This document shows, in pieces, positions 1-7,728 of a stretch of DNA of 7,728 nucleotides. The notes under the pieces are model-generated. The model saw nothing but the letters and a program-made list of their open reading frames with translations, was not told where the DNA came from and searched no databases. Position numbers and translations under genes: made by a program. How positions within the stretch are numbered: position 1 is the first letter of the stretch; each line of letters opens with the position of its first letter. Where the stretch lies: the IMG/VR virus record IMGVR_UViG_2529293042_000032, positions 1-7,728 of that record; one strand, 5' to 3'. Source of the stretch: a virus (taxonomy: Duplodnaviria > Heunggongvirae > Uroviricota > Caudoviricetes).

Positions 1-168
1 TCAAGCATTATGCAGGCTGTTTCTTTTTATCACCGGCCACAGCAATACCACAATGCCGCAGACCAGCACCCCATCCGCCAGCACCGACATGATTCTGCTG
101 GTGAAATCCACCATCACCACCAGAAACAGCAGGAGTGCAGCCACAGCCAGGCGCAGTTTTACCGTCAC
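1..168 (-). CDS. Small hydrophobic protein, 55 aa, two predicted transmembrane segments, function unknown
   Basis: Minus ORF GTG(168-166) to TGA(3-1): MTVKLRLAVAALLLFLVVMVDFTSRIMSVLADGVLVCGIVVLLWPVIKRNSLHNA. GGAGA Shine-Dalgarno 7 nt upstream. GTG overlaps the upstream TerB-like stop in a GTGA junction. Below the length cutoff of the ORF track. Window edge coincides with its stop codon. Confidence 0.55.
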   Translation of the reverse strand: MTVKLRLAVAALLLFLVVMVDFTSRIMSVLADGVLVCGIVVLLWPVIKRNSLHNA

Positions 169-596
169 AGGTGATTCTCCAGACGAAGACCCAGAACACC
201 GGCAATCTCTTCCAGCACCTTGCGCTCTTCCGGCTCAATTTCGCCGTCTGCCTCCGCAATGGCCACCGCCACATCCAGCACATCTTCCGCTTCACGCGTA
301 TCGTGTTTCACATCCTCAATCTCACGTAACGCCGCACGACGACCAGTTTTAAAGTTCGTATCCAGCTGACCGATAATGGTTGCGCTAATCGCATTAATTT
401 CTGACGTAAACGCGTACAGCGCAGGCTGATTACGCAGTACCTGTTCGATCTTCGCTTTCTCGGATGCCTCACATTCACCATCTGCACAGGCCACCAGGTA
501 TGCGGCGTTAATCACCACCTGTGCCAGATCGCGTTTTTCAAACTTTTTAATTTCCGTTGCCGCTCTGCGGGCTTTTTTACCAAAAATACCAAACAT
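165..596 (-). CDS. TerB-domain (tellurite-resistance TerB-like) protein, 143 aa
   Basis: ATG 596-594 with AGGA SD upstream, stop TGA 167-165. Two ADGE-x-E repeats (ACADGECEASEKAKIE and AEADGEIEPEERKVLEEI) typical of the TerB fold. The 215-aa version in the ORF track would read through the tRNA genes and is rejected. Confidence 0.8.
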   Translation of the reverse strand: MFGIFGKKARRAATEIKKFEKRDLAQVVINAAYLVACADGECEASEKAKIEQVLRNQPALYAFTSEINAISATIIGQLDTNFKTGRRAALREIEDVKHDTREAEDVLDVAVAIAEADGEIEPEERKVLEEIAGVLGLRLENHL

Positions 597-725
597 CGTG
601 ACGTTCCTTTGGGTGGGTGAGCCAACGCCCGGGAGCGATCTGCCCACAGAGAAAGTCACACTGACCACTCCGTAAGCTCCCCCCGAAAGGCTCTGTGGTT
701 GGTATGCGCCGGGCGTGGTGCGGAT

Positions 726-750
726 ACAAAAAAGGTCCGCCGAAGCGAGC
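726..750 (-). terminator. Candidate intrinsic terminator after the tRNA cluster
   Basis: Minus-strand RNA stem GCUCGC/GCGGAC (one mismatch, one G-U) with UUCG tetraloop followed by U6 (plus-strand A728-A733), 15 nt past the tRNA-Arg 3' end. Confidence 0.35.
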
Positions 751-764
751 GTGGAAAATAAGTG

Positions 765-840
765 TGGTGCGTTGTAGTGGGTCGAACCAGTGACCGATTG
801 CTTAGAAGGCAATTGCTCTGTCCGGCTGAGCTAACAACGC
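765..840 (-). tRNA. tRNA-Arg (anticodon UCU), T-arm non-canonical as read
   Basis: 76 nt manual cloverleaf: acceptor GCGTTGT/ACAACGC, D-stem GCTC/GAGC, anticodon stem ATTGC/GCAAT with loop CUUCUAA, CCA encoded. T-loop reads TTCGAC (6 nt, one short) in a CCC run. Confidence 0.65.
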
Positions 841-853
841 AGAATACCGATAA

Positions 854-929
854 TGGACCGCCATCGGGGACTCGCCCCCGCGCAACCAGCTTGTTATGGT
901 GTCGTTCTCTCCTGATGAGCTAATGGCGG
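854..929 (-). tRNA. tRNA-like sequence, degenerate (possible pseudo-tRNA)
   Basis: 76 nt lying between the two clear tRNAs. Perfect 7-bp acceptor stem CCGCCAT/ATGGCGG, T8-A9, GCTC D-stem start, encoded CCA. No convincing anticodon stem-loop; T-arm stem CGGGG/CCCCG with loop GCGAGT lacks TTC. Confidence 0.3.
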
Positions 930-936
930 TTTGTGA

Positions 937-1012
937 TGGTGGCCCTTGCTGGATTTGAACCAGCGGCCTGGCGATTATGAGTCGCTCGCTCTCACCACTG
1001 AGCTAAAGGGCC
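937..1012 (-). tRNA. tRNA with anticodon CAU (Ile2 lysidine-type likely; Met not excluded)
   Basis: 76 nt canonical cloverleaf: acceptor GGCCCTT/AAGGGCC, D-arm GCTC-AGTGGTGA-GAGC, anticodon loop CUCAUAA, T-arm GCTGG-TTCAAAT-CCAGC, CCA encoded. Resembles enterobacterial ileX-type tRNA from memory. Confidence 0.75.
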
Positions 1013-1021
1013 GGGAGCAGA

Positions 1022-1050
1022 ATAATAACGGTCCGTAATTAATTCCGCAA
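1022..1050 (-). promoter_or_regulatory. Candidate sigma70 promoter for the tRNA cluster
   Basis: Minus strand TTGCGG-N17-TATTAT ending about 10 nt upstream of the tRNA 5' end. The -35 is weak and overlaps the upstream terminator U-tract. Confidence 0.25.
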
Positions 1051-1074
1051 TAAAAAACCCGCTCAATGGCGGGT
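1049..1074 (-). terminator. Intrinsic terminator downstream of the Q-like gene (tR'-like)
   Basis: Minus-strand RNA hairpin ACCCGC-CAUUGA-GCGGGU followed by UUUUUAUU, about 80 nt after the Q-like stop codon. Confidence 0.6.
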
Positions 1075-1151
1075 TCTGGTAAAGTTCATGCGTTTGGTTC
1101 GCCTCGCGATACAGCTTTGCGAAGCTTACCGGAATTGAAGCAGTTTTTACG

Positions 1152-1718
1152 TCAAAAAGCAATAACTTTTTTCTCTATACCAAAAGCCATAACCATTGGT
1201 TTGTACAAAATAAATTCTGCCACCTTTAGCCAATGCTCAATGCGTCTTTCACAGGTTCTTAAACTCCATTCCGGATGTGCATCATTCAGCAATTCAGCCA
1301 TTTTGCGCTTAGTCATCCCCCGCCCCACATAACGCTGACTCAGAACATTGAGCAGCCCGGGATAACCTGCCAGTACTTCACCAATAACCCTATCGATTAT
1401 TAACGCCTCTGAATCGGTACAATGTGCCAGCCAGCTTTTTTGATTGCCGTTGATCATATCCCGCAAAAAAGCCTCAAGTTCAGGTTTGTCCAGACCCGCT
1501 TTTTTCATCCTCCGGAGCGCCTCGTTAATTGCCGTTTTTGTCAGCTTTTTAGAGGTCAGTAATTGGTTGAACATATTTCCCGTCTTACCGTCGCCAATAT
1601 ACGACCAACGCCCCCACATACGCAGTTTCCCCTGGATCCAGACACTTTCCAGCGTTTTCAGGCGTAAATGCTCACCGCTTTTGCCTGTAATTTCCGGGTA
1701 TATCATATTTATGCTCAC
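1152..1718 (-). CDS. Putative late-gene antiterminator Q-like protein, 188 aa
   Basis: GTG 1718-1716 (alternative ATG 1706-1704) to TGA 1154-1152. Sits directly after rusA and directly before a strong terminator and the tRNA cluster, the canonical Q slot. Assignment by synteny, not by search. Confidence 0.5.
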   Translation of the reverse strand: MSINMIYPEITGKSGEHLRLKTLESVWIQGKLRMWGRWSYIGDGKTGNMFNQLLTSKKLTKTAINEALRRMKKAGLDKPELEAFLRDMINGNQKSWLAHCTDSEALIIDRVIGEVLAGYPGLLNVLSQRYVGRGMTKRKMAELLNDAHPEWSLRTCERRIEHWLKVAEFILYKPMVMAFGIEKKVIAF

Positions 1719-2073
1719 TCACTTTCAATTTTGTAAATCTTCACGCCCAGCCGCCCACCAGAAACGAGCTAGCCGCGCACAATATTGATTTCATCAAACT
1801 GCTCGTCGTCTATGGGAAGTCCGGCATGCGTCAGCGCATCCAGTGGTGCTTTCAGGATATTGTCCAGGTCACGACGGCGCTTATCCGGTGGCTCTGCAAT
1901 AATCTTTATCGCCAGCCTTCCGGACAGGTTAATTTCAGCCGCTGCTGGCGAACAATAAGTGCCACATCCCGGCGATAACGCTCACCGGCTTTTGATACAA
2001 AATATGTGCTGCCACGACGTCGCCAGTAGGTGTTCACCGTCGGCGGGTAAGGCAAAACAAACTCTATACGCAT
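1715..2073 (-). pseudogene. rusA: RusA-like Holliday junction resolvase, disrupted by a frameshift and an in-frame TAG
   Basis: ATG 2073-2071 (GAGG SD) reads MRIEFVLPYPPTVNTYWRRRGSTYFVSKAGERYRRDVALIVRQQRLKLT then hits TAA 1908-1906. The RusA motif continues in another frame (GRLAIKIIAEPPDKRRRDLDNILKAPLDALTHAGLPIDDEQFDEINIVRG), meets TAG 1771-1769, then LVSGGRLGVKIYKIESE to TGA 1717-1715. Span is 359 nt, not a multiple of 3. Confidence 0.65.
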
Positions 2074-2085
2074 CAGTAACCTCTT

Positions 2086-3190
2086 TTACCCGAGCACGCC
2101 GGTTGCAAAGGCGTGATCAAGAAAACGAAAAATTAAATCAACCTGGGAACCATGCTTTTCTTCGAACGCCAGCGGATCCGCATGAAGCTCGTTGTGATGC
2201 TCCCGACACAGCGGTAGCGTGAAAATATCGTGGGATTTTGTTCCCATTCCGCCCTGACCATGACCAATCAGATGATGAGGATCGTCCGCTGGCCTTACCA
2301 CAACACGCACACGGCTGTGTCTTTACCCAGCGTGTGTATTTCTCATTTACCCAGCGGCGACGTTTAGGTCGTTTCATGAAGGATTCCGGAGACTCCGGAT
2401 CAACGGCAATGCTGACCACCGTCTTTTCCTGTGGTGGGTTCTGTTGCTGGTGGGTGTGAGGCGGTAGCGCAATATTTTTTGTGCGCTGCTTCAGTATGCT
2501 GGTGGCGGTCTGTTCTCCCGGTATGATGTCGCTTTCACGGTATACGGAGCGGATTTTTTCCGCCGGTAATCCCAGAGAGCGACGCGATACTGCCTCAGGT
2601 AATGCGTCCACCACCTGATTGCAGACTGCCCACCAGGATAATTCAGCCAGCGATAATTCCCGCTCCTGCGTGCCATTCATTACATGGCGTATGACGTCAA
2701 TCATCCAGGCTGTCAGATTTTGTTGAGTAAGTTGCTCAAGTGATTCGGAGGTCTGGTCGCGCAGCTGGTTGTCGCAGTGCCAGCACAACACCATTGCGCC
2801 AGCACCGTAACTGTGAATAACGGTTTCGCTGTGATGATAATCGCCGTGTGGCCACTGGCAGGATTTCACGTGACGTAATAACCAGTCAGACAGTGCACCA
2901 GCGCCGCCAGCTGCACGAATCACCCGCTCATCGCTGAAAAATGGCAGCAGTGATTTATCTTCCGCCAGCGGCTGGCGAACAGCAGGAACCGCTCCAGATG
3001 GCAGCGCCCGCATGTTTTTCGGTTCCGGCTCCACCAGCACCCTGCCGCGATGAAAAACTGGCAATGATTCACGACCGGGCTTAAGGACCACCAGCCCGAG
3101 TTCCGGAACCAGAACAGGTCGAAGTAATACCCGCACATTACCTCCAGACGCGCTGACGGTAGCAGGCATGTGTCCGTGGCAGATGTGCAC
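2086..3190 (-). pseudogene. YdfU/DUF968-like Cys/His-rich protein, apparently frameshifted in its C-terminal domain
   Basis: Long frame (GTG 3190 or ATG 3169) carries MKRPKRRRWVNEKYTRWVKTQPCACCGKA then low-complexity sequence to 2138. The conserved continuation DDPHHLIGHGQGGMGTKSHDIFTLPLCREHHNELHADPLAFEEKHG is in the +1 frame, ending TAA 2088-2086. Switch near 2290-2296 (GGCC run). Layout resembles E. coli Qin YdfU (about 350 aa) from memory. Confidence 0.45.
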
Positions 3191-3410
3191 GAACAGGAAG
3201 ATATACAGAAACGGTCCAGGTCAGACGATCAGCGTTCAGACTCCGCTCCACACGGACACCGCGACGCAGATACGCCTCTTGAAGCATATCTGCCTCATCG
3301 ATCGTACAGAACAGATAGTGAAACCAGCCATACTGAGGCGCACGAAAACGCCTCCCCTGCTTAATTTCCGGGTCGGCTTCAGAATTGTGGGATTTTATGT
3401 GTTGTGTCAT
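3138..3410 (-). CDS. Hypothetical protein, 90 aa
   Basis: ATG 3410-3408 with GGAG SD 6 nt upstream. Starts MTQHIKSHNSEADPEIKQGRRFRAPQYGWFHYLFCTIDEADMLQEAYLRRGVRVERSLNADRL. The last 30 residues look low-complexity. Overlaps the start of the next ORF. Confidence 0.4.
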   Translation of the reverse strand: MTQHIKSHNSEADPEIKQGRRFRAPQYGWFHYLFCTIDEADMLQEAYLRRGVRVERSLNADRLTWTVSVYLPVRAHLPRTHACYRQRVWR

Positions 3411-3459
3411 CGGATTCTCCGGTGACAGCAGGTGTCAGTTGTTCAGGCTGACTGCGCGA

Positions 3460-3488
3460 ATTGTAAGGCAATACGCCGGAATGTACAA
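3460..3488 (-). promoter_or_regulatory. Candidate sigma70 promoter (TTGTAC-N17-TACAAT) for the nin-like/Q operon
   Basis: Minus strand -35 TTGTAC (3488-3483) and -10 TACAAT (3465-3460) with 17-nt spacer, between the upstream terminator and the 3410 start. Confidence 0.3.
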
Positions 3489-3514
3489 ACAGAAAACCCG
3501 TCAGTAAGACGGGC
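3486..3514 (-). terminator. Intrinsic terminator after the YgiW-like gene
   Basis: Minus-strand RNA CCCGUC-UUACU-GACGGG followed by UUUUCUGUUUG, 18 nt past the stop at 3534-3532. Confidence 0.55.
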
Positions 3515-3531
3515 TTAACAAGCAGGGGCGG

Positions 3532-3876
3532 TTACTTTAATAATTTCAGTGCCTTTACATCAACTTCAACACTGCTCAGGTCTTTATCAATTTCACCCTC
3601 AATTCTTACTTTGTCTTTCGGAGAAACATTCTGACCGGCCCATATGCTGTCATCGATATCCGTGACAATTGTCCCGCTATTGTCACGAAACTCATAACGT
3701 TCATCACCCACTTTTTTAACGATGCTCCCTTCAAGGATAACCCATGCATCATCCTTCAGTTCTTTTGCCTGCGCTACTGTTGAACGCTCTGCTTCAGGCC
3801 CTTGGAAACCGCCCTGCTGTGCAAAAGCGCCAAAAGACACACCAGAAATAAGTGCTGCAATCAATACCTTTTTCAT
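3532..3876 (-). CDS. YgiW/YdeI (BOF) family OB-fold periplasmic protein with signal peptide, 114 aa
   Basis: ATG 3876-3874 with AGAGGA SD. N-terminal signal MKKVLIAALISGVSFGAFA. Family pattern QGGF.GP...STV.QAK.L.DD..V.L.G.IV.K..D..Y.F.D..G.I..DIDD..W present. Confidence 0.8.
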   Translation of the reverse strand: MKKVLIAALISGVSFGAFAQQGGFQGPEAERSTVAQAKELKDDAWVILEGSIVKKVGDERYEFRDNSGTIVTDIDDSIWAGQNVSPKDKVRIEGEIDKDLSSVEVDVKALKLLK

Positions 3877-3995
3877 TCATAGTCCTCTTTCAGAGATGAA
3901 CATTCAAACAGCATTTTCAGTATGGTAAAGCGCGGGTGCGTTGAGGATGCCTGACACATCAGAGGTGGCGGGAGATTACTCCCCCGCTTGGTCTC

Positions 3996-4151
3996 TTACT
4001 TCTCAGATTCGTAGTCTACGAAGACAGCGACCTCCGTCTGACCGGTTCGGATTCGCACCTCGCAGAGGTCTTTCCTCGTTACCAGTGCCGTCACTATGAC
4101 GGTTAAACAGATGACGATCAGGGCGATTAACATCGCCTTTTGCTGCTTCAT
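3996..4151 (-). CDS. hok: Hok/Gef family membrane toxin, 51 aa
   Basis: MKQQKAMLIALIVICLTVIVTALVTRKDLCEVRIRTGQTEVAVFVDYESEK with AAGGAG SD. Single TM segment followed by LTRKxLCE[IV]R...EVA.F..YES signature. An in-frame upstream ATG at 4208 would give 70 aa. Confidence 0.8.
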   Translation of the reverse strand: MKQQKAMLIALIVICLTVIVTALVTRKDLCEVRIRTGQTEVAVFVDYESEK

Positions 4152-4441
4152 AGCCTGCTTCTCCTTGCCTTTCGGCACGTAAGAGGCTAACCTACATGTG
4201 TTCAGCATGGATTGAGCCTCAGATTAATGTTAAGCGTCTTGCCGGACGCGTAATGTTAACTGGGGCTTTTCTCTATCTGCCGTTGGTGTTCATGCCCGAG
4301 GCAGATAGCCTCAAGCACCCGCAGCAATTCTACTTAACTCTCCTTTTCCCGCAAACCGTTTTTATCTCCAGCGACAAATCGAATACACAACCAGCACCAC
4401 CGCCATTACTGTTCCTACATTTGCGAATGCTTCAGGCCAGG

Positions 4442-4837
4442 TCATTGATTCACCTTCTGCTCAATATTTTTAAGGTCATTTTCCGCATACAGTATTGCAG
4501 TTCTTGCTGCCCGCAACCGTGCTTTGGTGTTCTTTTCTTCACGCTCGAGGCTGGCAACAGATTCTCGGAGCTGATCGTGTCTGTTATGAAGCTGTCTAAT
4601 CTCTCTCACCACAGCCTCACCATCGTTCGCACACCGCAGAACATACTGAAAAGGGTCCACAACACATCCGCACTGCAAGCACAGGATAACGTGATCCTGT
4701 TCATGAACCTCAATGGCCCGATGCTTACAGCTCTGTTGTGTGTAGTTTTTTCTGCCAGTTACTGTAATGTTCAGCAGCTTCTCTTCATCGCGCTTTGGCT
4801 GCACCAGTGTGATGATATTATCGCCTTCATTTTCCAT
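4442..4837 (-). CDS. Cys-rich zinc-ribbon-like protein with C-terminal coiled coil, 131 aa, function unknown
   Basis: ATG 4837-4835 with AGGAGG SD 7 nt upstream; start shares one base with the upstream TGA (TGATG). Cys cluster SCKH..ILCLQCGC..RCAN then heptad-like C-terminus. The 156-aa version in the track lacks an SD and overlaps the upstream gene. Confidence 0.55.
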   Translation of the reverse strand: MENEGDNIITLVQPKRDEEKLLNITVTGRKNYTQQSCKHRAIEVHEQDHVILCLQCGCVVDPFQYVLRCANDGEAVVREIRQLHNRHDQLRESVASLEREEKNTKARLRAARTAILYAENDLKNIEQKVNQ

Positions 4838-5736
4838 CAGTTCACCTCCTGCGGCGGTTCTGGTAGCGGCATCCAGTGTGACGGTTTCCACGACGCACCA
4901 GGAATTATCCACCCATCATTAGCGTCAGGATGCCCCGGGATGTAAGTCGCCCACTTCATTCGCCAGTCACCTTTCCTGTCAAACTCCACGGCAACAAGAA
5001 CGGCTGTTTTGGTATCCGGCATTCGCTCACTACAACTTATCCAACCATCCGGAGTTACCGGAGAGTTGCCAGACAGCGCATTCTGCAACCGTTCCAGCTT
5101 AACGTATTCCTGAACCCTGTTTCCGTCGCACGCCTGAAGCCATTGCTCAGCCTTTTGCGCATCAGTGTGAAAGGCACAAGTGCGACCGTCATCAAATTGC
5201 ATTTCGTAGAGGTTAGCAATCTGTTCAAACTGCGTGTGTGGCAACTTGTAAGTTTGGCTTACGAGTTCGGCTTCCAGTTCTGCTATGCGCTTCTCTGATG
5301 CTTCAAGTAACGCCTGCTTATCGCGTAGCGCTTCTTCCAGTTCAGCAACATGGCATTCACTATCAATAAGGTTGTTCTCTGCTGCTCCCAGCTCAACTCT
5401 CAGCTTCCCAACCGTAAGCGCAATCTCCTCGTTCTCCTGGTCGCGGCGTTTGATGTATTGCTGGTTTCTTTCCTGTTCATCCAGCAGTGCCAGCACGGTA
5501 GCCGGGTTAGCCTCTGCTATGAATTCAGCGTTTGCATAAGCCTGATCATCTGATTCAATCAGGCAGTTAACATGACATTCCGCAATCACGCCACCGGGTT
5601 CTCCTTTCCATTTTTGGCAAACAAAAACTCCTGTTAAATTGCCGTGCTGGTTAACAGATGTATGCCCTACGATGTAGCTTCCTTTAGTTGCTTTCTCTGC
5701 CTTTTCACGCAGTGCCTGATAATTAATTTCGCTCAC
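4837..5736 (-). CDS. Ea22-like N-terminal domain / DUF551-like C-terminal domain protein, 299 aa
   Basis: GTG 5736-5734 (AGAGAGG SD) overlapping the TraR stop in a GTGA junction. N-terminus MSEINYQALREKAEKATKGSY...NPATVLALLDE, central coiled coil, C-terminus DGWISCSERMPD...VLVAV...WMPLPEPP. Assigned from memory. Confidence 0.65.
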   Translation of the reverse strand: MSEINYQALREKAEKATKGSYIVGHTSVNQHGNLTGVFVCQKWKGEPGGVIAECHVNCLIESDDQAYANAEFIAEANPATVLALLDEQERNQQYIKRRDQENEEIALTVGKLRVELGAAENNLIDSECHVAELEEALRDKQALLEASEKRIAELEAELVSQTYKLPHTQFEQIANLYEMQFDDGRTCAFHTDAQKAEQWLQACDGNRVQEYVKLERLQNALSGNSPVTPDGWISCSERMPDTKTAVLVAVEFDRKGDWRMKWATYIPGHPDANDGWIIPGASWKPSHWMPLPEPPQEVN

Positions 5737-5954
5737 TTCGAACCTCTCTGTTTACTGATAAGCTCCAGATCCTCCTGGCAACTTGCACAAGTCCGACAAC
5801 CCTGAACGGCCAGGCGTCTTCGCTCATCTATGGGATCGCCACACTCGCAACAATGAGTAGCAGATGGGGCATTACTATCGGATTTGTATTTTTGCAGGGA
5901 GAGATTGCGCTGCAATTCTTCGATTTCAGCGGCGTTGTCGATGATATCTGCCAT
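5733..5954 (-). CDS. TraR/DksA-family C4 zinc-finger protein, 73 aa
   Basis: ATG 5954-5952 with AGGAAAGGA SD. Two CxxC pairs (CCECGDPI...CRTCASCQ) in the TraR arrangement. Confidence 0.8.
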   Translation of the reverse strand: MADIIDNAAEIEELQRNLSLQKYKSDSNAPSATHCCECGDPIDERRRLAVQGCRTCASCQEDLELISKQRGSK

Positions 5955-5974
5955 TTTCCTTTCCTTCAGGCATG

Positions 5975-5999
5975 AAAAAAGGAGCCGAAGCTCCTTTGG
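5975..5999 (-). terminator. Intrinsic terminator between the AntA-like gene and the traR operon (possibly bidirectional)
   Basis: Plus AAAAAA-GGAGC-CGAA-GCTCC-TTTGGTTTT. On the minus strand the GGAGC/GCUCC stem with UUCG loop is followed by U6. Sits in the 47-nt gap between the 6002 stop and the 5954 start. Confidence 0.5.
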
Positions 6000-6001
6000 T
6001 T

Positions 6002-6631
6002 TTAGAATTCGAATTGCCTTGCCCGCAGGCTTTTCAGCATTGGTCTGGCCCGCTGAACTACGAAACTCGACTGGTCAAGCCGTGCCGCCTCTCTCAGTAG
6101 CACATCTCTGTTCTTCGTCACCATGTAGATGGTCTCAAACGCAATGTCATACAGCTTGTTCGTGTATGAGGAGTTCAGCTCTTTCATGATCGGATACAGG
6201 TGTTTGCTGAGGTCCTGGGCTTTTTCCATCCAGAGTTGCATGTAGCAGAGGAGGATGATTTCCTCGTCTGTGAATTGTTGCTGTGGTTCTGCTTGTGCCG
6301 ACTGCATGTTGCGAAGTTTCTTTTCGCACTCGATGAAGTATCTGCGTATCTGTCGGCCTTTTTCGTTACGCTCTACCATCGCCGTTTCTTTGGCTGTATC
6401 GAGGGTAAGGTGGTAGTCTTTTTTCCCTCGCCCATAACCTATTTCCCGTTTCTGGGAAATAGCTATATAGTCCTGATTTTCAACGAATCCGTACTCTTCA
6501 ATACGTTCTGTAATCCACGATGCAAAGCGTTTACCTACTCCAAGAAAAGTATGTAAATCACGGGCATTAACGAGAAGAGTGGTTTCGTTGGCGATAGTGC
6601 CGTTGAATACGGGGATGCGTTGACTGGTCAT
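6002..6631 (-). CDS. AntA/AntB-type phage antirepressor-like protein, 209 aa
   Basis: ATG 6631-6629 with AGGAGG SD 6 nt upstream. N-terminal LLVNARDLHTFLGVGKRFASWITERIEEYGFVENQDYI and HLTLDTAKETAMVERNEKGRQIRRYFIECEKKL match the AntA-type antirepressor N-domain as I recall it. Confidence 0.65.
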   Translation of the reverse strand: MTSQRIPVFNGTIANETTLLVNARDLHTFLGVGKRFASWITERIEEYGFVENQDYIAISQKREIGYGRGKKDYHLTLDTAKETAMVERNEKGRQIRRYFIECEKKLRNMQSAQAEPQQQFTDEEIILLCYMQLWMEKAQDLSKHLYPIMKELNSSYTNKLYDIAFETIYMVTKNRDVLLREAARLDQSSFVVQRARPMLKSLRARQFEF

Positions 6632-6659
6632 GATGACCTCCTTATTTGTTTAGTTTATA

Positions 6660-6682
6660 ACCGCCAGTTAGTAGCTGGCGGT
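6660..6682. repeat. Perfect 8-bp inverted repeat (ACCGCCAG-N7-CTGGCGGT) 10 nt upstream of the antA SD
   Basis: Read directly: arms 6660-6667 and 6675-6682, loop TTAGTAG. Confidence 0.6.
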
Positions 6683-6849
6683 CGGGTGTCAACTGAGCCA
6701 AATAAGAAGCTCTGGGCATATTCCCCTTGCGGGTGTTGTATTACGCCTCTCCACCCGACCTTTGTACGGATGTAACTATGCCAAATTGCAGGCATAAAAA
6801 AGCCGCAAAGCTATCGGGTGCGGAGACCGCTTATTTGTTCAGTGCGGTC

Positions 6850-6879
6850 AGTATGCGATAGCTCTGGAGGATTTGTCAA
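6850..6879 (-). promoter_or_regulatory. Candidate sigma70 promoter with consensus -35 (TTGACA-N18-CATACT) for the antA transcript
   Basis: Minus strand TTGACA at 6879-6874, CATACT at 6855-6850. Would give a leader of about 210 nt that contains the 6660-6682 palindrome. Confidence 0.3.
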
Positions 6880-6926
6880 TCAGCGGAATATTGATGAACG
6901 GGTAACGGTAAATGCCTCATCCAGAA

Positions 6927-6963
6927 AATTAACGCAAATTCGCATCGCAAACTTGCGTTAATT
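6927..6963. promoter_or_regulatory. Perfect 11-bp inverted repeat AATTAACGCAA-N15-TTGCGTTAATT, operator-like
   Basis: Read directly: arms 6927-6937 and 6953-6963. A third ACGCAA-like half-site (TCGCAAA) lies in the spacer. Confidence 0.45.
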
Positions 6964-6994
6964 ATCTGAAATATCAAGTTAAATCCCCTTAAAT

Positions 6995-7080
6995 GTTTGG
7001 GGCACTATTGGGGCAAAATGTGGTTGTTTGGGGCACTATTGGGGCAAAATGTGGTTGTTTGGGGCATATTTGGGGCAAAA
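6995..7080. repeat. Tandem direct repeat, 31-bp unit x about 2.8, giving six TTGGGGCA motifs
   Basis: Units 6995-7025 and 7026-7056 are identical (GTTTGGGGCACTATTGGGGCAAAATGTGGTT); a variant partial unit runs 7057-7080. Motif starts at 6997, 7008, 7028, 7039, 7059, 7070 (spacing alternates 11 and 20 bp). AAAGAACG x2 follows at 7080-7098. Confidence 0.75.
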
Positions 7081-7186
7081 AAGAACGTATAAAGAACGGT
7101 GTAAAATTGATTTCTTCATGGTCAAAATGAGGTGTAACAGATTGAAAAATATATGCTCTTGGACGATCTTCGGTAATTCTGTGTTT

Positions 7187-7249
7187 TTAATGCTTCATGG
7201 TTTCAATATGTCCGTACATGGAATAATAAAGCACCAGAACTTTAGCCAT
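7187..7249 (-). pseudogene. wrbA: 5' fragment of host wrbA (codons 1-18) truncated by prophage insertion
   Basis: Minus ATG 7249-7247 encodes MAKVLVLYYSMYGHIETM, matching the WrbA N-terminus from memory, then diverges into KH-stop (TAA 7189-7187). Confidence 0.7.
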
Positions 7250-7620
7250 TTCTAACCACTCCTCGTGTTATCTCTATTCCGTAGCGATTCGCTACCACTT
7301 ATTTAAAGATAAGACGTCCTTTTCAGAGTGCAAATTTCACAACCACTTATTTGATTTATAACAACTTTCACAAGCACGCAATTTTGTCGCAAAATGACAC
7401 ATTTTTATCTCATCGCGTTTTTTTAATCATAAGAGCGGCTTATGGATAATTATTGGAGATGATATCTATTCTCGCTAAGAAGCTGTTGCAGGATATTACC
7501 AAACGCGGGTAGAAACACGTCAGTTCACTAAGCTTAGTCCCACGTAGCGAAAATATGGCAGCCGCCATACGCCGCGTTAATTCTAGCAATATGATGTCTA
7601 TACCCAGACGGAGGTCAGTA

Positions 7621-7728
7621 ATGGCAAACCATCGAGGCGGTTCCGGCAATTTTGCAGAAGACCGCGAAAGAGCATCAGAAGCAGGTAAAAAAGGTGGCAA
7701 GAGCAGTCACGGCAAAAGCGACAACTAG
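7621..7728 (+). CDS. ymdF: KGG-repeat general stress protein (YmdF/YciG family), 35 aa, single-repeat form
   Basis: ATG 7621 with GGAGG SD 6 nt upstream, stop TAG 7726-7728: MANHRGGSGNFAEDRERASEAGKKGGKSSHGKSDN. Lies next to wrbA as ymdF does in E. coli K-12. Window edge coincides with its stop codon. Confidence 0.8.
   Translation: MANHRGGSGNFAEDRERASEAGKKGGKSSHGKSDN

Follow-up and report, generated by a model that had tools for sequence, protein, structure and literature searches.

The subject of this analysis is a pair of overlapping genes at one end of a 7,728-nt stretch of DNA (hereafter, the window) that comprises positions 1 to 7,728 of the IMG/VR record IMGVR_UViG_2529293042_000032, a virus of the class Caudoviricetes. 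Homology identifies this pair, with high confidence, as a lambdoid-prophage copy of tciA-tciB, a phage accessory unit in which a gene for a TerB-family protein is followed by a gene for a tiny hydrophobic protein of the DUF3927 family. Thus, as an annotated entity tciAB is not new, and the view of the first-pass annotation of this DNA, that the pairing had not been described, has to be abandoned: the two genes are named in phage P1, have PHROG families of their own and are labelled by the RefSeq Prokaryotic Genome Annotation Pipeline (PGAP) in 840 complete Escherichia coli genomes. The pair proves to be what that annotation itself had named as the alternative, a common annotated component or known operon.

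The tciA-tciB pair and its counterpart in phage P1

The larger open reading frame (ORF), the tciA homologue, occupies positions 165..596 on the minus strand (ATG at 596..594, TGA at 167..165) and encodes a single-domain TerB-family protein of 143 amino acids (aa). The smaller one, the tciB homologue, occupies positions 1..168 on the same strand (GTG at 168..166, stop codon at 3..1, window position 1 being the last base of this stop codon) and encodes a hydrophobic DUF3927 protein of 55 aa. At the junction between the two (165..180, minus strand), a GGAG at 180..177 is followed, after an 8-nt spacer, by the GTG start, which overlaps the TGA of the TerB gene in the form of GTGA (168..165); a putative ribosome-binding region of the TerB gene itself (597..610, minus strand), with AGGA at 608..605, 8 nt before the ATG, can be read from the sequence. 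The first description of this locus as a TerB-fold protein coupled through GTGA to a tiny 55-aa ORF is therefore accurate, and the search with hidden Markov models that it called for recovers both the TerB and the DUF3927 domains of Pfam.

In particular, the 143-aa product matches Pfam TerB with E=1.2e-11 (45.4 bits against a curated cutoff of 24.4), TerB of Klebsiella pneumoniae (PDB 2JXU) with E=4.5e-7 over residues 15-137, that is, nearly the full length, and PHROG 632, 'tellurite resistance', over the full length with 5.7e-68. The 55-aa product matches Pfam DUF3927 (E=4.3e-17) and PHROG 1470, 'TciB-like' (4e-30). When the window is compared with phage JLK-2012, the ratio of nonsynonymous to synonymous substitution rates (dN/dS) is 0.0155/0.268 (0.06) for the TerB ORF and 0.174/0.653 (0.27) for the small ORF in its annotated frame, the value for the latter being >1.5 in each of the other two frames. 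Both ORFs are thus real coding sequences, and both are under purifying selection.

The names tciA and tciB, along with tciC, reportedly go back to Lobocka et al., who used them for phage P1 in 2004. According to the GenBank record of P1, the ban operon, which is under the control of C1, includes tciA (a TerB homologue), tciB and tciC, the last of which encodes 35 aa, with tRNA genes on either side. In a tblastn comparison, the TerB protein of the window shows 39.9% identity to P1 TciA over 143 aa (E=2e-20), and the TciB proteins of the two phages are about 50-58% identical, with the common core VDFTS...SVL.DG..V...WP..K. Furthermore, these two genes bear the names tciA and tciB in the annotation of phage JLK-2012, and the RefSeq label assigned by PGAP is 'tellurite resistance TerB family protein' for the first gene and 'DUF3927 family protein' for the second.

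The likeness to P1 extends to the organization of the module: in P1, as in the window, a TerB protein of ~141-143 aa is followed, with an overlap of 1-4 nt, by a DUF3927 protein of 54-55 aa, tciB lies directly downstream on the same strand (the P1 junction is of the ATGA type, with an overlap of 1 nt), tRNA genes are adjacent, and function has been assigned by homology only. P1 differs in having the third gene, tciC (PHROG 23152), whereas the window ends at the tciB stop codon and its relatives have a small RNA (sRNA) of the STnc100 type at that place; and it differs in expressing the genes from the C1-controlled ban operon, whereas the window pair is located in a Q-dependent late operon. To judge from these comparisons, the window pair possesses all the defining features of the P1 tciAB module except for the P1-specific tciC.

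As for the proteins themselves, the window TerB contains two acidic ADGxxxxxE motifs of the kind typical of TerB, the residues D23, D39, E46, E66, E92, D95, D117 and E124 are invariant across 8 phage TerBs, and the N-terminus of TciA, MFGIFGKKARR, is hydrophobic-polybasic and conserved. TciB has hydrophobic maxima at approximately residues 5-20 and 30-47; both of its ends are basic (K4 and R6 in the N-terminal part, K48 and R49 in the C-terminal part), and two near-invariant aspartates, D21 and D32, flank a short amphipathic linker. From the hydropathy and the distribution of charges, TciB may be a hairpin of two transmembrane segments.

Spread of the TerB-DUF3927 linkage

A survey of co-occurrence, which the first-pass annotation proposed as a check, finds the pair far beyond this prophage, and the linkage came through it strongly. 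The 596-bp pair is present at 3940 places in 840 of the 5426 complete E. coli genomes. The carrier genomes, mostly of O157:H7 and further strains of the Shiga-toxin type, have 6 copies at the median and 10 at most; P1-like phage-plasmids carry tciAB as well. Within IMG/VR, TerB is encoded directly upstream of DUF3927 in all 80 loci that were recovered with the small protein, these loci being close relatives of one another. Abutting or overlapping TerB and DUF3927 genes are found also in P1, P7, SJ46 and Klebsiella temperate phages or prophage, in the virulent N4-like phages Pollock, FSL SP-058/076, TR2 and UTK0002, and in jumbo Erwinia phages including ChrisDB; a scan of genome contigs with a narrow profile yielded 3 loci. 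The DUF3927 family is small, given that its profile, when run against 1.84 billion representative proteins, returned only 119 clusters, with lengths of about 50-60 aa. Among 8 randomly picked divergent representatives of these, TerB is immediately upstream in 7, and the contig of the eighth is too short to judge. In 11 pairs from unrelated phages and contigs, the junctions measure -3 to +11 nt, from a 3-nt gap to an 11-nt overlap. By this distribution, the linkage of TerB and DUF3927 is ancient.

A divergent TerB-DUF3927 pair adjoins an SbcCD-like pair on a bacterial chromosome (L096/L097, a 1.99-Mb bacterial contig), where an AIPR-domain gene follows in L096 and an H-NS gene in L097; this context may be a defence island or a prophage remnant. 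In Pseudomonas phage AF, an unannotated 73-aa ORF (L008, positions 1932-2153, plus strand) with a single hydrophobic/transmembrane segment begins with a GTG that overlaps the TerB stop codon as GTGA, like that of the window, and shows no similarity to DUF3927. In phage 434 (L005, positions 2112-3344; also L091 and L092), a PHROG 1521 membrane protein is encoded together with DUF3927 and a 62-aa membrane protein. No conserved third partner of the pair was identified: P1 TciC, Pollock gp29, ChrisDB gp8/gp9, the 62-aa protein of phage 434 and the neighbours in metagenomic contigs belong to different PHROGs or to none, so that tciC is not a fixed part of the module and conservation is limited to the two genes.

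Genes for tRNAs surround or adjoin tciAB in three unrelated phage types, namely lambdoid/Klebsiella, P1 and jumbo Erwinia (loci L003 of P1, L006 of ChrisDB, L002, L010 and L093); JLK-2012 and P1 have in common a tRNA-Asn and a tRNA-Thr next to tciAB. A functional link between the pair and the tRNAs was considered and rejected, because N4-like phages and the other metagenomic contigs have no tRNAs beside the pair, and the tRNA neighbourhood is likely to be a shared accessory hot-spot instead.

The late-operon slot and its neighbourhood

The assignment of the pair to a cargo slot behind Q in the first-pass annotation is correct: the genes lie downstream of Q, its tR' terminator and the tRNAs, in the position that stxAB takes in Stx2 phages. 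All of these features are on the minus strand. The gene for the late antiterminator Q (1152..1718; Pfam DUF1133 3.7e-105, Phage_antitermQ 5.9e-8) is followed by a tR'-type intrinsic terminator (1046..1077), with a 9-bp stem (-13.1 kcal/mol) and then UUUUUUAUU, a U-run. Next come an ileZ-like tRNA with a CAT anticodon (937..1012; recognized by ARAGORN and Rfam, and annotated as tRNA-Ile in RefSeq relatives), a degenerate argN-like pseudo-tRNA (841..936), which aligns to argN of the Stx2a phage 1447 with a heavily changed anticodon arm and is called by neither ARAGORN nor Rfam, and an argO-like tRNA-Arg (TCT) (765..840; ARAGORN; Rfam, 56.6 bits).

The terminator that had been placed between the tRNAs and the pair fares less well. 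A hairpin followed by U6 is indeed present after tRNA-Arg (728..751, minus strand), yet its stem is only 4 bp long, with an RNAfold energy of -4.2 kcal/mol. The Stx2a phage 1447 has after argO a 7-bp hairpin, of which the one in the window is a weakened copy; as a degraded form of the post-argO hairpin of Stx2 phages, it belongs with the tRNA cluster rather than with the cargo. A consensus terminator scan listed no minus-strand site, despite the clear hairpin at 1046-1077, which makes its negatives unreliable here.

Alignment with the Stx2a phage 1447 shows the tRNA region of the window to be the ileZ-argN-argO cluster, and the homology ends just past the post-tRNA hairpin; in phage 1447, the same tRNA cluster is followed by stx2A-stx2B and then by an esterase homologue. 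Because the homology stops after the tRNA cluster, precisely where stx2AB sits, tciAB and stxAB are, by this alignment, alternative cargos at one site of the Q-dependent late transcript. The stxAB cassette of Stx2 phages has the same insertion point, with ileZ-argN-argO on its upstream side and the nanS-p esterase and lysis genes on its downstream side, whereas its proteins and their function are unrelated to those of tciAB, so stxAB is a positional analogue only.

The close relatives of the window, which share 97-99.7% identity with it and belong to O157:H7 or other strains of the Shiga-toxin type (STEC), show what follows tciB, namely an STnc100 match, a SASA/nanS-p esterase, a class II holin, ydfR and a lysozyme. 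The STnc100 match (Rfam, 104.7 bits against a gathering score of 47) was located in L001, at positions 8824-8996 on the minus strand, just beyond window position 1; it starts 5 nt past the DUF3927 stop codon, and a match between tciB and the nanS-p esterase is present in L108 as well. The STnc100-type RNA could be an sRNA derived from the 3' untranslated region of the tciAB transcript. In a 2026 preprint (PMC13192938), STnc100 is connected with the PasD sRNAs of prophages, and TerB is named among the genes that are typically found near PasA/PasC. The closest O157:H7 relative, L108, carries between Q and the tRNAs a segment of ~1.1 kb (7048-8094) with a helix-turn-helix-domain gene and a small ORF; this segment is missing at window positions 1013-1151, where Q, tR' and the tRNAs follow one another directly.

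Upstream of tciA on the minus strand, no sigma-70 promoter was detected either by a scan or by eye. The leader at 590-770 does not stand out as a structured RNA, its fold being no better than that of shuffled sequences (z=0.22), and it has no match in Rfam.

Elsewhere in the window, the minus strand encodes a hok/sok type I toxin-antitoxin system (3996-4320), with a Hok-family ORF at 4208..3996 and an Rfam sok match at 4320..4146 (113.5 bits); an intergenic Rfam sRNA-Xcc1 match (6672-6760; 69.1 bits against a gathering score of 53) upstream of an antirepressor-like ORF (6631..6002); and, between the DUF968/RusA genes and hok, an ORF of the YgiW/YdeI (NirD/YgiW/YdeI stress-tolerance) family with a signal peptide (3532-3876), which looks like another moron-type cargo gene.

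What tciAB might do

So what could be the function of this pair? The explanation that we favour, albeit tentatively, is that TciA and TciB form a translationally coupled, membrane-associated TerB complex that endows the phage with a non-essential accessory function at the inner membrane. Given the location in the late operon and the lack of a detected promoter of its own, lambdoid tciAB is probably expressed late and in dependence on induction, in a Q-dependent transcript that would run from Q through tR', the tRNAs, tciA, tciB, an STnc100-type sRNA and the nanS-p esterase to the holin and endolysin genes. With the tciB GTG lying inside the tciA stop codon, the two proteins would be made together. 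TciB would be an inner-membrane protein, probably folded into a helical hairpin whose basic ends lie in the cytoplasm and whose D21/D32 are near the outer face, and TciA, a cytoplasmic protein, would act at the membrane together with TciB, in the manner of TerB with TerC or of the tethered domains of DjlA and YebE. More speculatively, the complex might act on the envelope of infected or induced cells, its most likely task being to protect them from a second phage, from pore-forming colicins, or from stress to membrane and ions; such a role in envelope protection or exclusion would have its counterpart in the inhibition of phages and the resistance to colicins that the complete ter operon confers. 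Among the roles that the first-pass annotation had raised, that in stress is, at this level, possible, as is one in the envelope.

In the classical ter operon, terB is followed by terC, the gene for a membrane protein, and DjlA and YebE have TerB-like domains with a membrane anchor. TerB of the operon terZABCDE(F) resembles TciA in being a single-domain protein of the same size and fold family (2JXU) that is encoded directly upstream of the gene for an integral membrane protein; in tciAB, however, the partner is the 55-aa DUF3927 protein, in which no similarity to TerC was detected (E up to 1), and there are no TerD, TerE, TerZ or TerA genes near tciAB. DjlA and YebE (DUF533) show weak similarity to TciA over the C-terminal TerB repeat (DjlA, 5.5e-7; DUF533, 1.9e-5), in both cases below the family cut-offs, and the sub-threshold similarity to DjlA was all that an NCBIfam search of the pair produced. 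Like the proposed tciAB complex, these proteins hold a TerB-type domain at the membrane, but they do so through transmembrane segments of their own, whereas in tciAB the membrane segment is a separate polypeptide and there is no J domain.

Published information is scarce. In P1, tciA, tciB and tciC all scored as non-essential in a CRISPR interference screen (PMC10695390). TciA peptides have been detected in virion preparations derived from P1 lysates (PMC9024508), and P1 TciA is thus expressed in lytic growth. Phage Ter components have been proposed to function in competition with superinfecting phages by Iyer et al. (2021; PMC7824862), who also list standalone TerB in Erwinia jumbo phages, and the same suggestion is made in PMC7371120; it is this idea that we take, with modest confidence, as the leading hypothesis.

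Several points weigh against the proposed membrane complex and its role. AlphaFold2 models the TciB monomer as one uninterrupted helix spanning residues 3-54, with a confidence score (pLDDT) of 90.7, and the initial description of TciB as a protein with two transmembrane segments was put too firmly: the two hydrophobic stretches and the basic ends are there, the model has one long helix in place of two, and the hairpin is thus no more than a candidate topology. The searchable literature yielded neither an experiment on any tciAB pair nor a functional study of tciA, tciB or DUF3927. The time of expression is not the same in all phage types, the genes being late in lambdoids, part of the C1-repressed ban operon in P1 and located in the early/middle region in N4-like phages, so a single shared role is not guaranteed. 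In phages 434 and 2B8 and in an E. albertii prophage, the gene upstream of DUF3927 codes not for TerB but for a polytopic membrane protein of 247 aa. The module of 434 and 2B8 occupies the same slot as the window pair (Q, terminator, ..., esterase, holin), and its DUF3927 protein is 74% identical to that of the window over residues 21-51; the difference is that TerB is replaced by the 247-aa protein, which has no Pfam family. The Pseudomonas and Vibrio phages that were examined possess TerB without DUF3927, and there is no genuine TerB-DUF3927 fusion among the 119 DUF3927 clusters. Finally, across the 11 pairs, the pairwise identities of TerB and of TciB are uncorrelated (r=0.19, p=0.16), so that the genes have been reshuffled by recombination and a tight, co-evolving interface is left without evident support. 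Three longer DUF3927 matches were rejected as fusions; they are frameshift or chimeric ORFs, in one of which a TerB C-terminus continues out of frame into TciB.

The last four of these findings (the other upstream partner of DUF3927 in 434 and 2B8, the solitary TerB of Pseudomonas and Vibrio phages, the lack of fusions and the lack of co-phylogeny) are what would be expected if the two proteins acted independently, with the linkage being only historical, TciB being a generic small membrane subunit that works with other partners, and TerB a free-standing cytoplasmic factor. Given the 434-type arrangement and the absence of co-phylogeny, we consider this a serious alternative, even if on balance an unlikely one, because overlapping or abutting junctions are retained at TerB identities down to ~20-27% and TciB identities down to ~12-31%, and because TerB is immediately upstream in the 7 of 8 randomly picked divergent DUF3927 clusters.

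Rather little probability attaches to abortive infection or another form of defence, in which TerB would sense the infection and the small membrane protein would kill or depolarise the cell to the benefit of the lysogen population. It is true that effectors are often small hydrophobic proteins, that TerB-type domains are part of the Shango defence system according to the literature, that the divergent pair of L096, on a bacterial chromosome, has an AIPR-domain gene and an SbcCD-like pair in its vicinity, and that phage inhibition by the ter operon is cited in PMC7371120. A search of PADLOC-DB v2, including Shango and TerY-P, however, gave for TerB a best match of E=0.007 and 13.4 bits, to PDC-S48, and none for TciB, and neither the window nor its close relatives contain a helicase, ATPase or kinase gene as a neighbour of the pair. 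Moreover, the pair belongs to a late operon and a search for a separate promoter found none, so that it should be silent in a lysogen that has not been induced; strictly virulent N4-like and jumbo phages carry the pair, and 6-10 copies per genome are tolerated.

Lysogenic conversion, that is, resistance of the host to tellurite, metals or oxidative stress, as the database name 'tellurite resistance' implies, strikes us as improbable to much the same degree. The TerB domain is there, the pair is enriched in enterohaemorrhagic E. coli (EHEC) and STEC, which are typically tellurite resistant, and it occupies the moron slot that is otherwise used by stx. Nevertheless, terC, terD, terE and terZ are absent from the window and from the 6-9 kb flanks of the close relatives, and terB by itself is not considered to be enough (PMC8421299); again, no promoter of the pair's own was found, and the virulent phages that carry the pair would gain nothing from tellurite resistance of the host.

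Least probable of all, and only slightly credible, is an accessory role in the timing of lysis, with the pair serving, for instance, as an antiholin or as a modulator of the holin in the holin/endolysin cassette that lies downstream: although the lambdoid pair belongs to the same late transcript, ~2.6 kb upstream of the class II holin, and TciB resembles small holins in size and hydrophobic layout, the sRNA and a 1.85-kb esterase gene separate the two in lambdoids, no lysis genes adjoin the pair in P1 (ban operon, tRNAs), Pollock (early/middle genes) or ChrisDB (tRNAs), Stx phages lyse normally with stxAB in the place of tciAB, and the first segment of TciB, being strongly hydrophobic, would seem unlike the membrane-exiting segment of a pinholin. 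Both of these ideas, abortive infection and lysis timing, had been put forward as speculation in the first-pass annotation, and they find no support: PADLOC gives no match, the pair is present in virulent N4-like and jumbo phages, where it stands away from lysis genes, and P1 tciABC scored as non-essential. As a whole, the pair fits neither the ter operon nor any known defence system, and it does not look like a component of a lysis cassette.

Returning to the membrane-associated TerB complex, one can imagine a bolder version, namely that tciAB is a minimal, self-sufficient two-gene 'Ter' unit, in which an oligomer of TciB in the inner membrane would form a cation-binding site or small pore lined by the two near-invariant aspartates, to be gated or sensed from the cytoplasm by the TerB protein, which is of the metal-binding type. 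We consider this quite unlikely. If true, however, such a unit would by itself give the infected cell the phage-exclusion and colicin-resistance phenotypes that are attributed to the seven-gene ter operon, and this would explain why the pair is retained by lambdoid, P1, N4-like and jumbo phages and is present in 6-10 copies in the stx slot of EHEC.

As found, the pair matters little, considering that it has already been named, assigned to Pfam and PHROG families and given a standard label in RefSeq. Its distribution is another matter. The tciAB pair is among the most repeated accessory cassettes of the lambdoid prophages of EHEC and STEC, with up to 10 copies per genome, it is found exactly in the position that is taken by the Shiga-toxin genes in Stx phages, and the coupled genes have been kept across at least four unrelated phage lineages. 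A study of the function of tciAB would also help explain the role of the TerB domain, including that in the classical ter operon.

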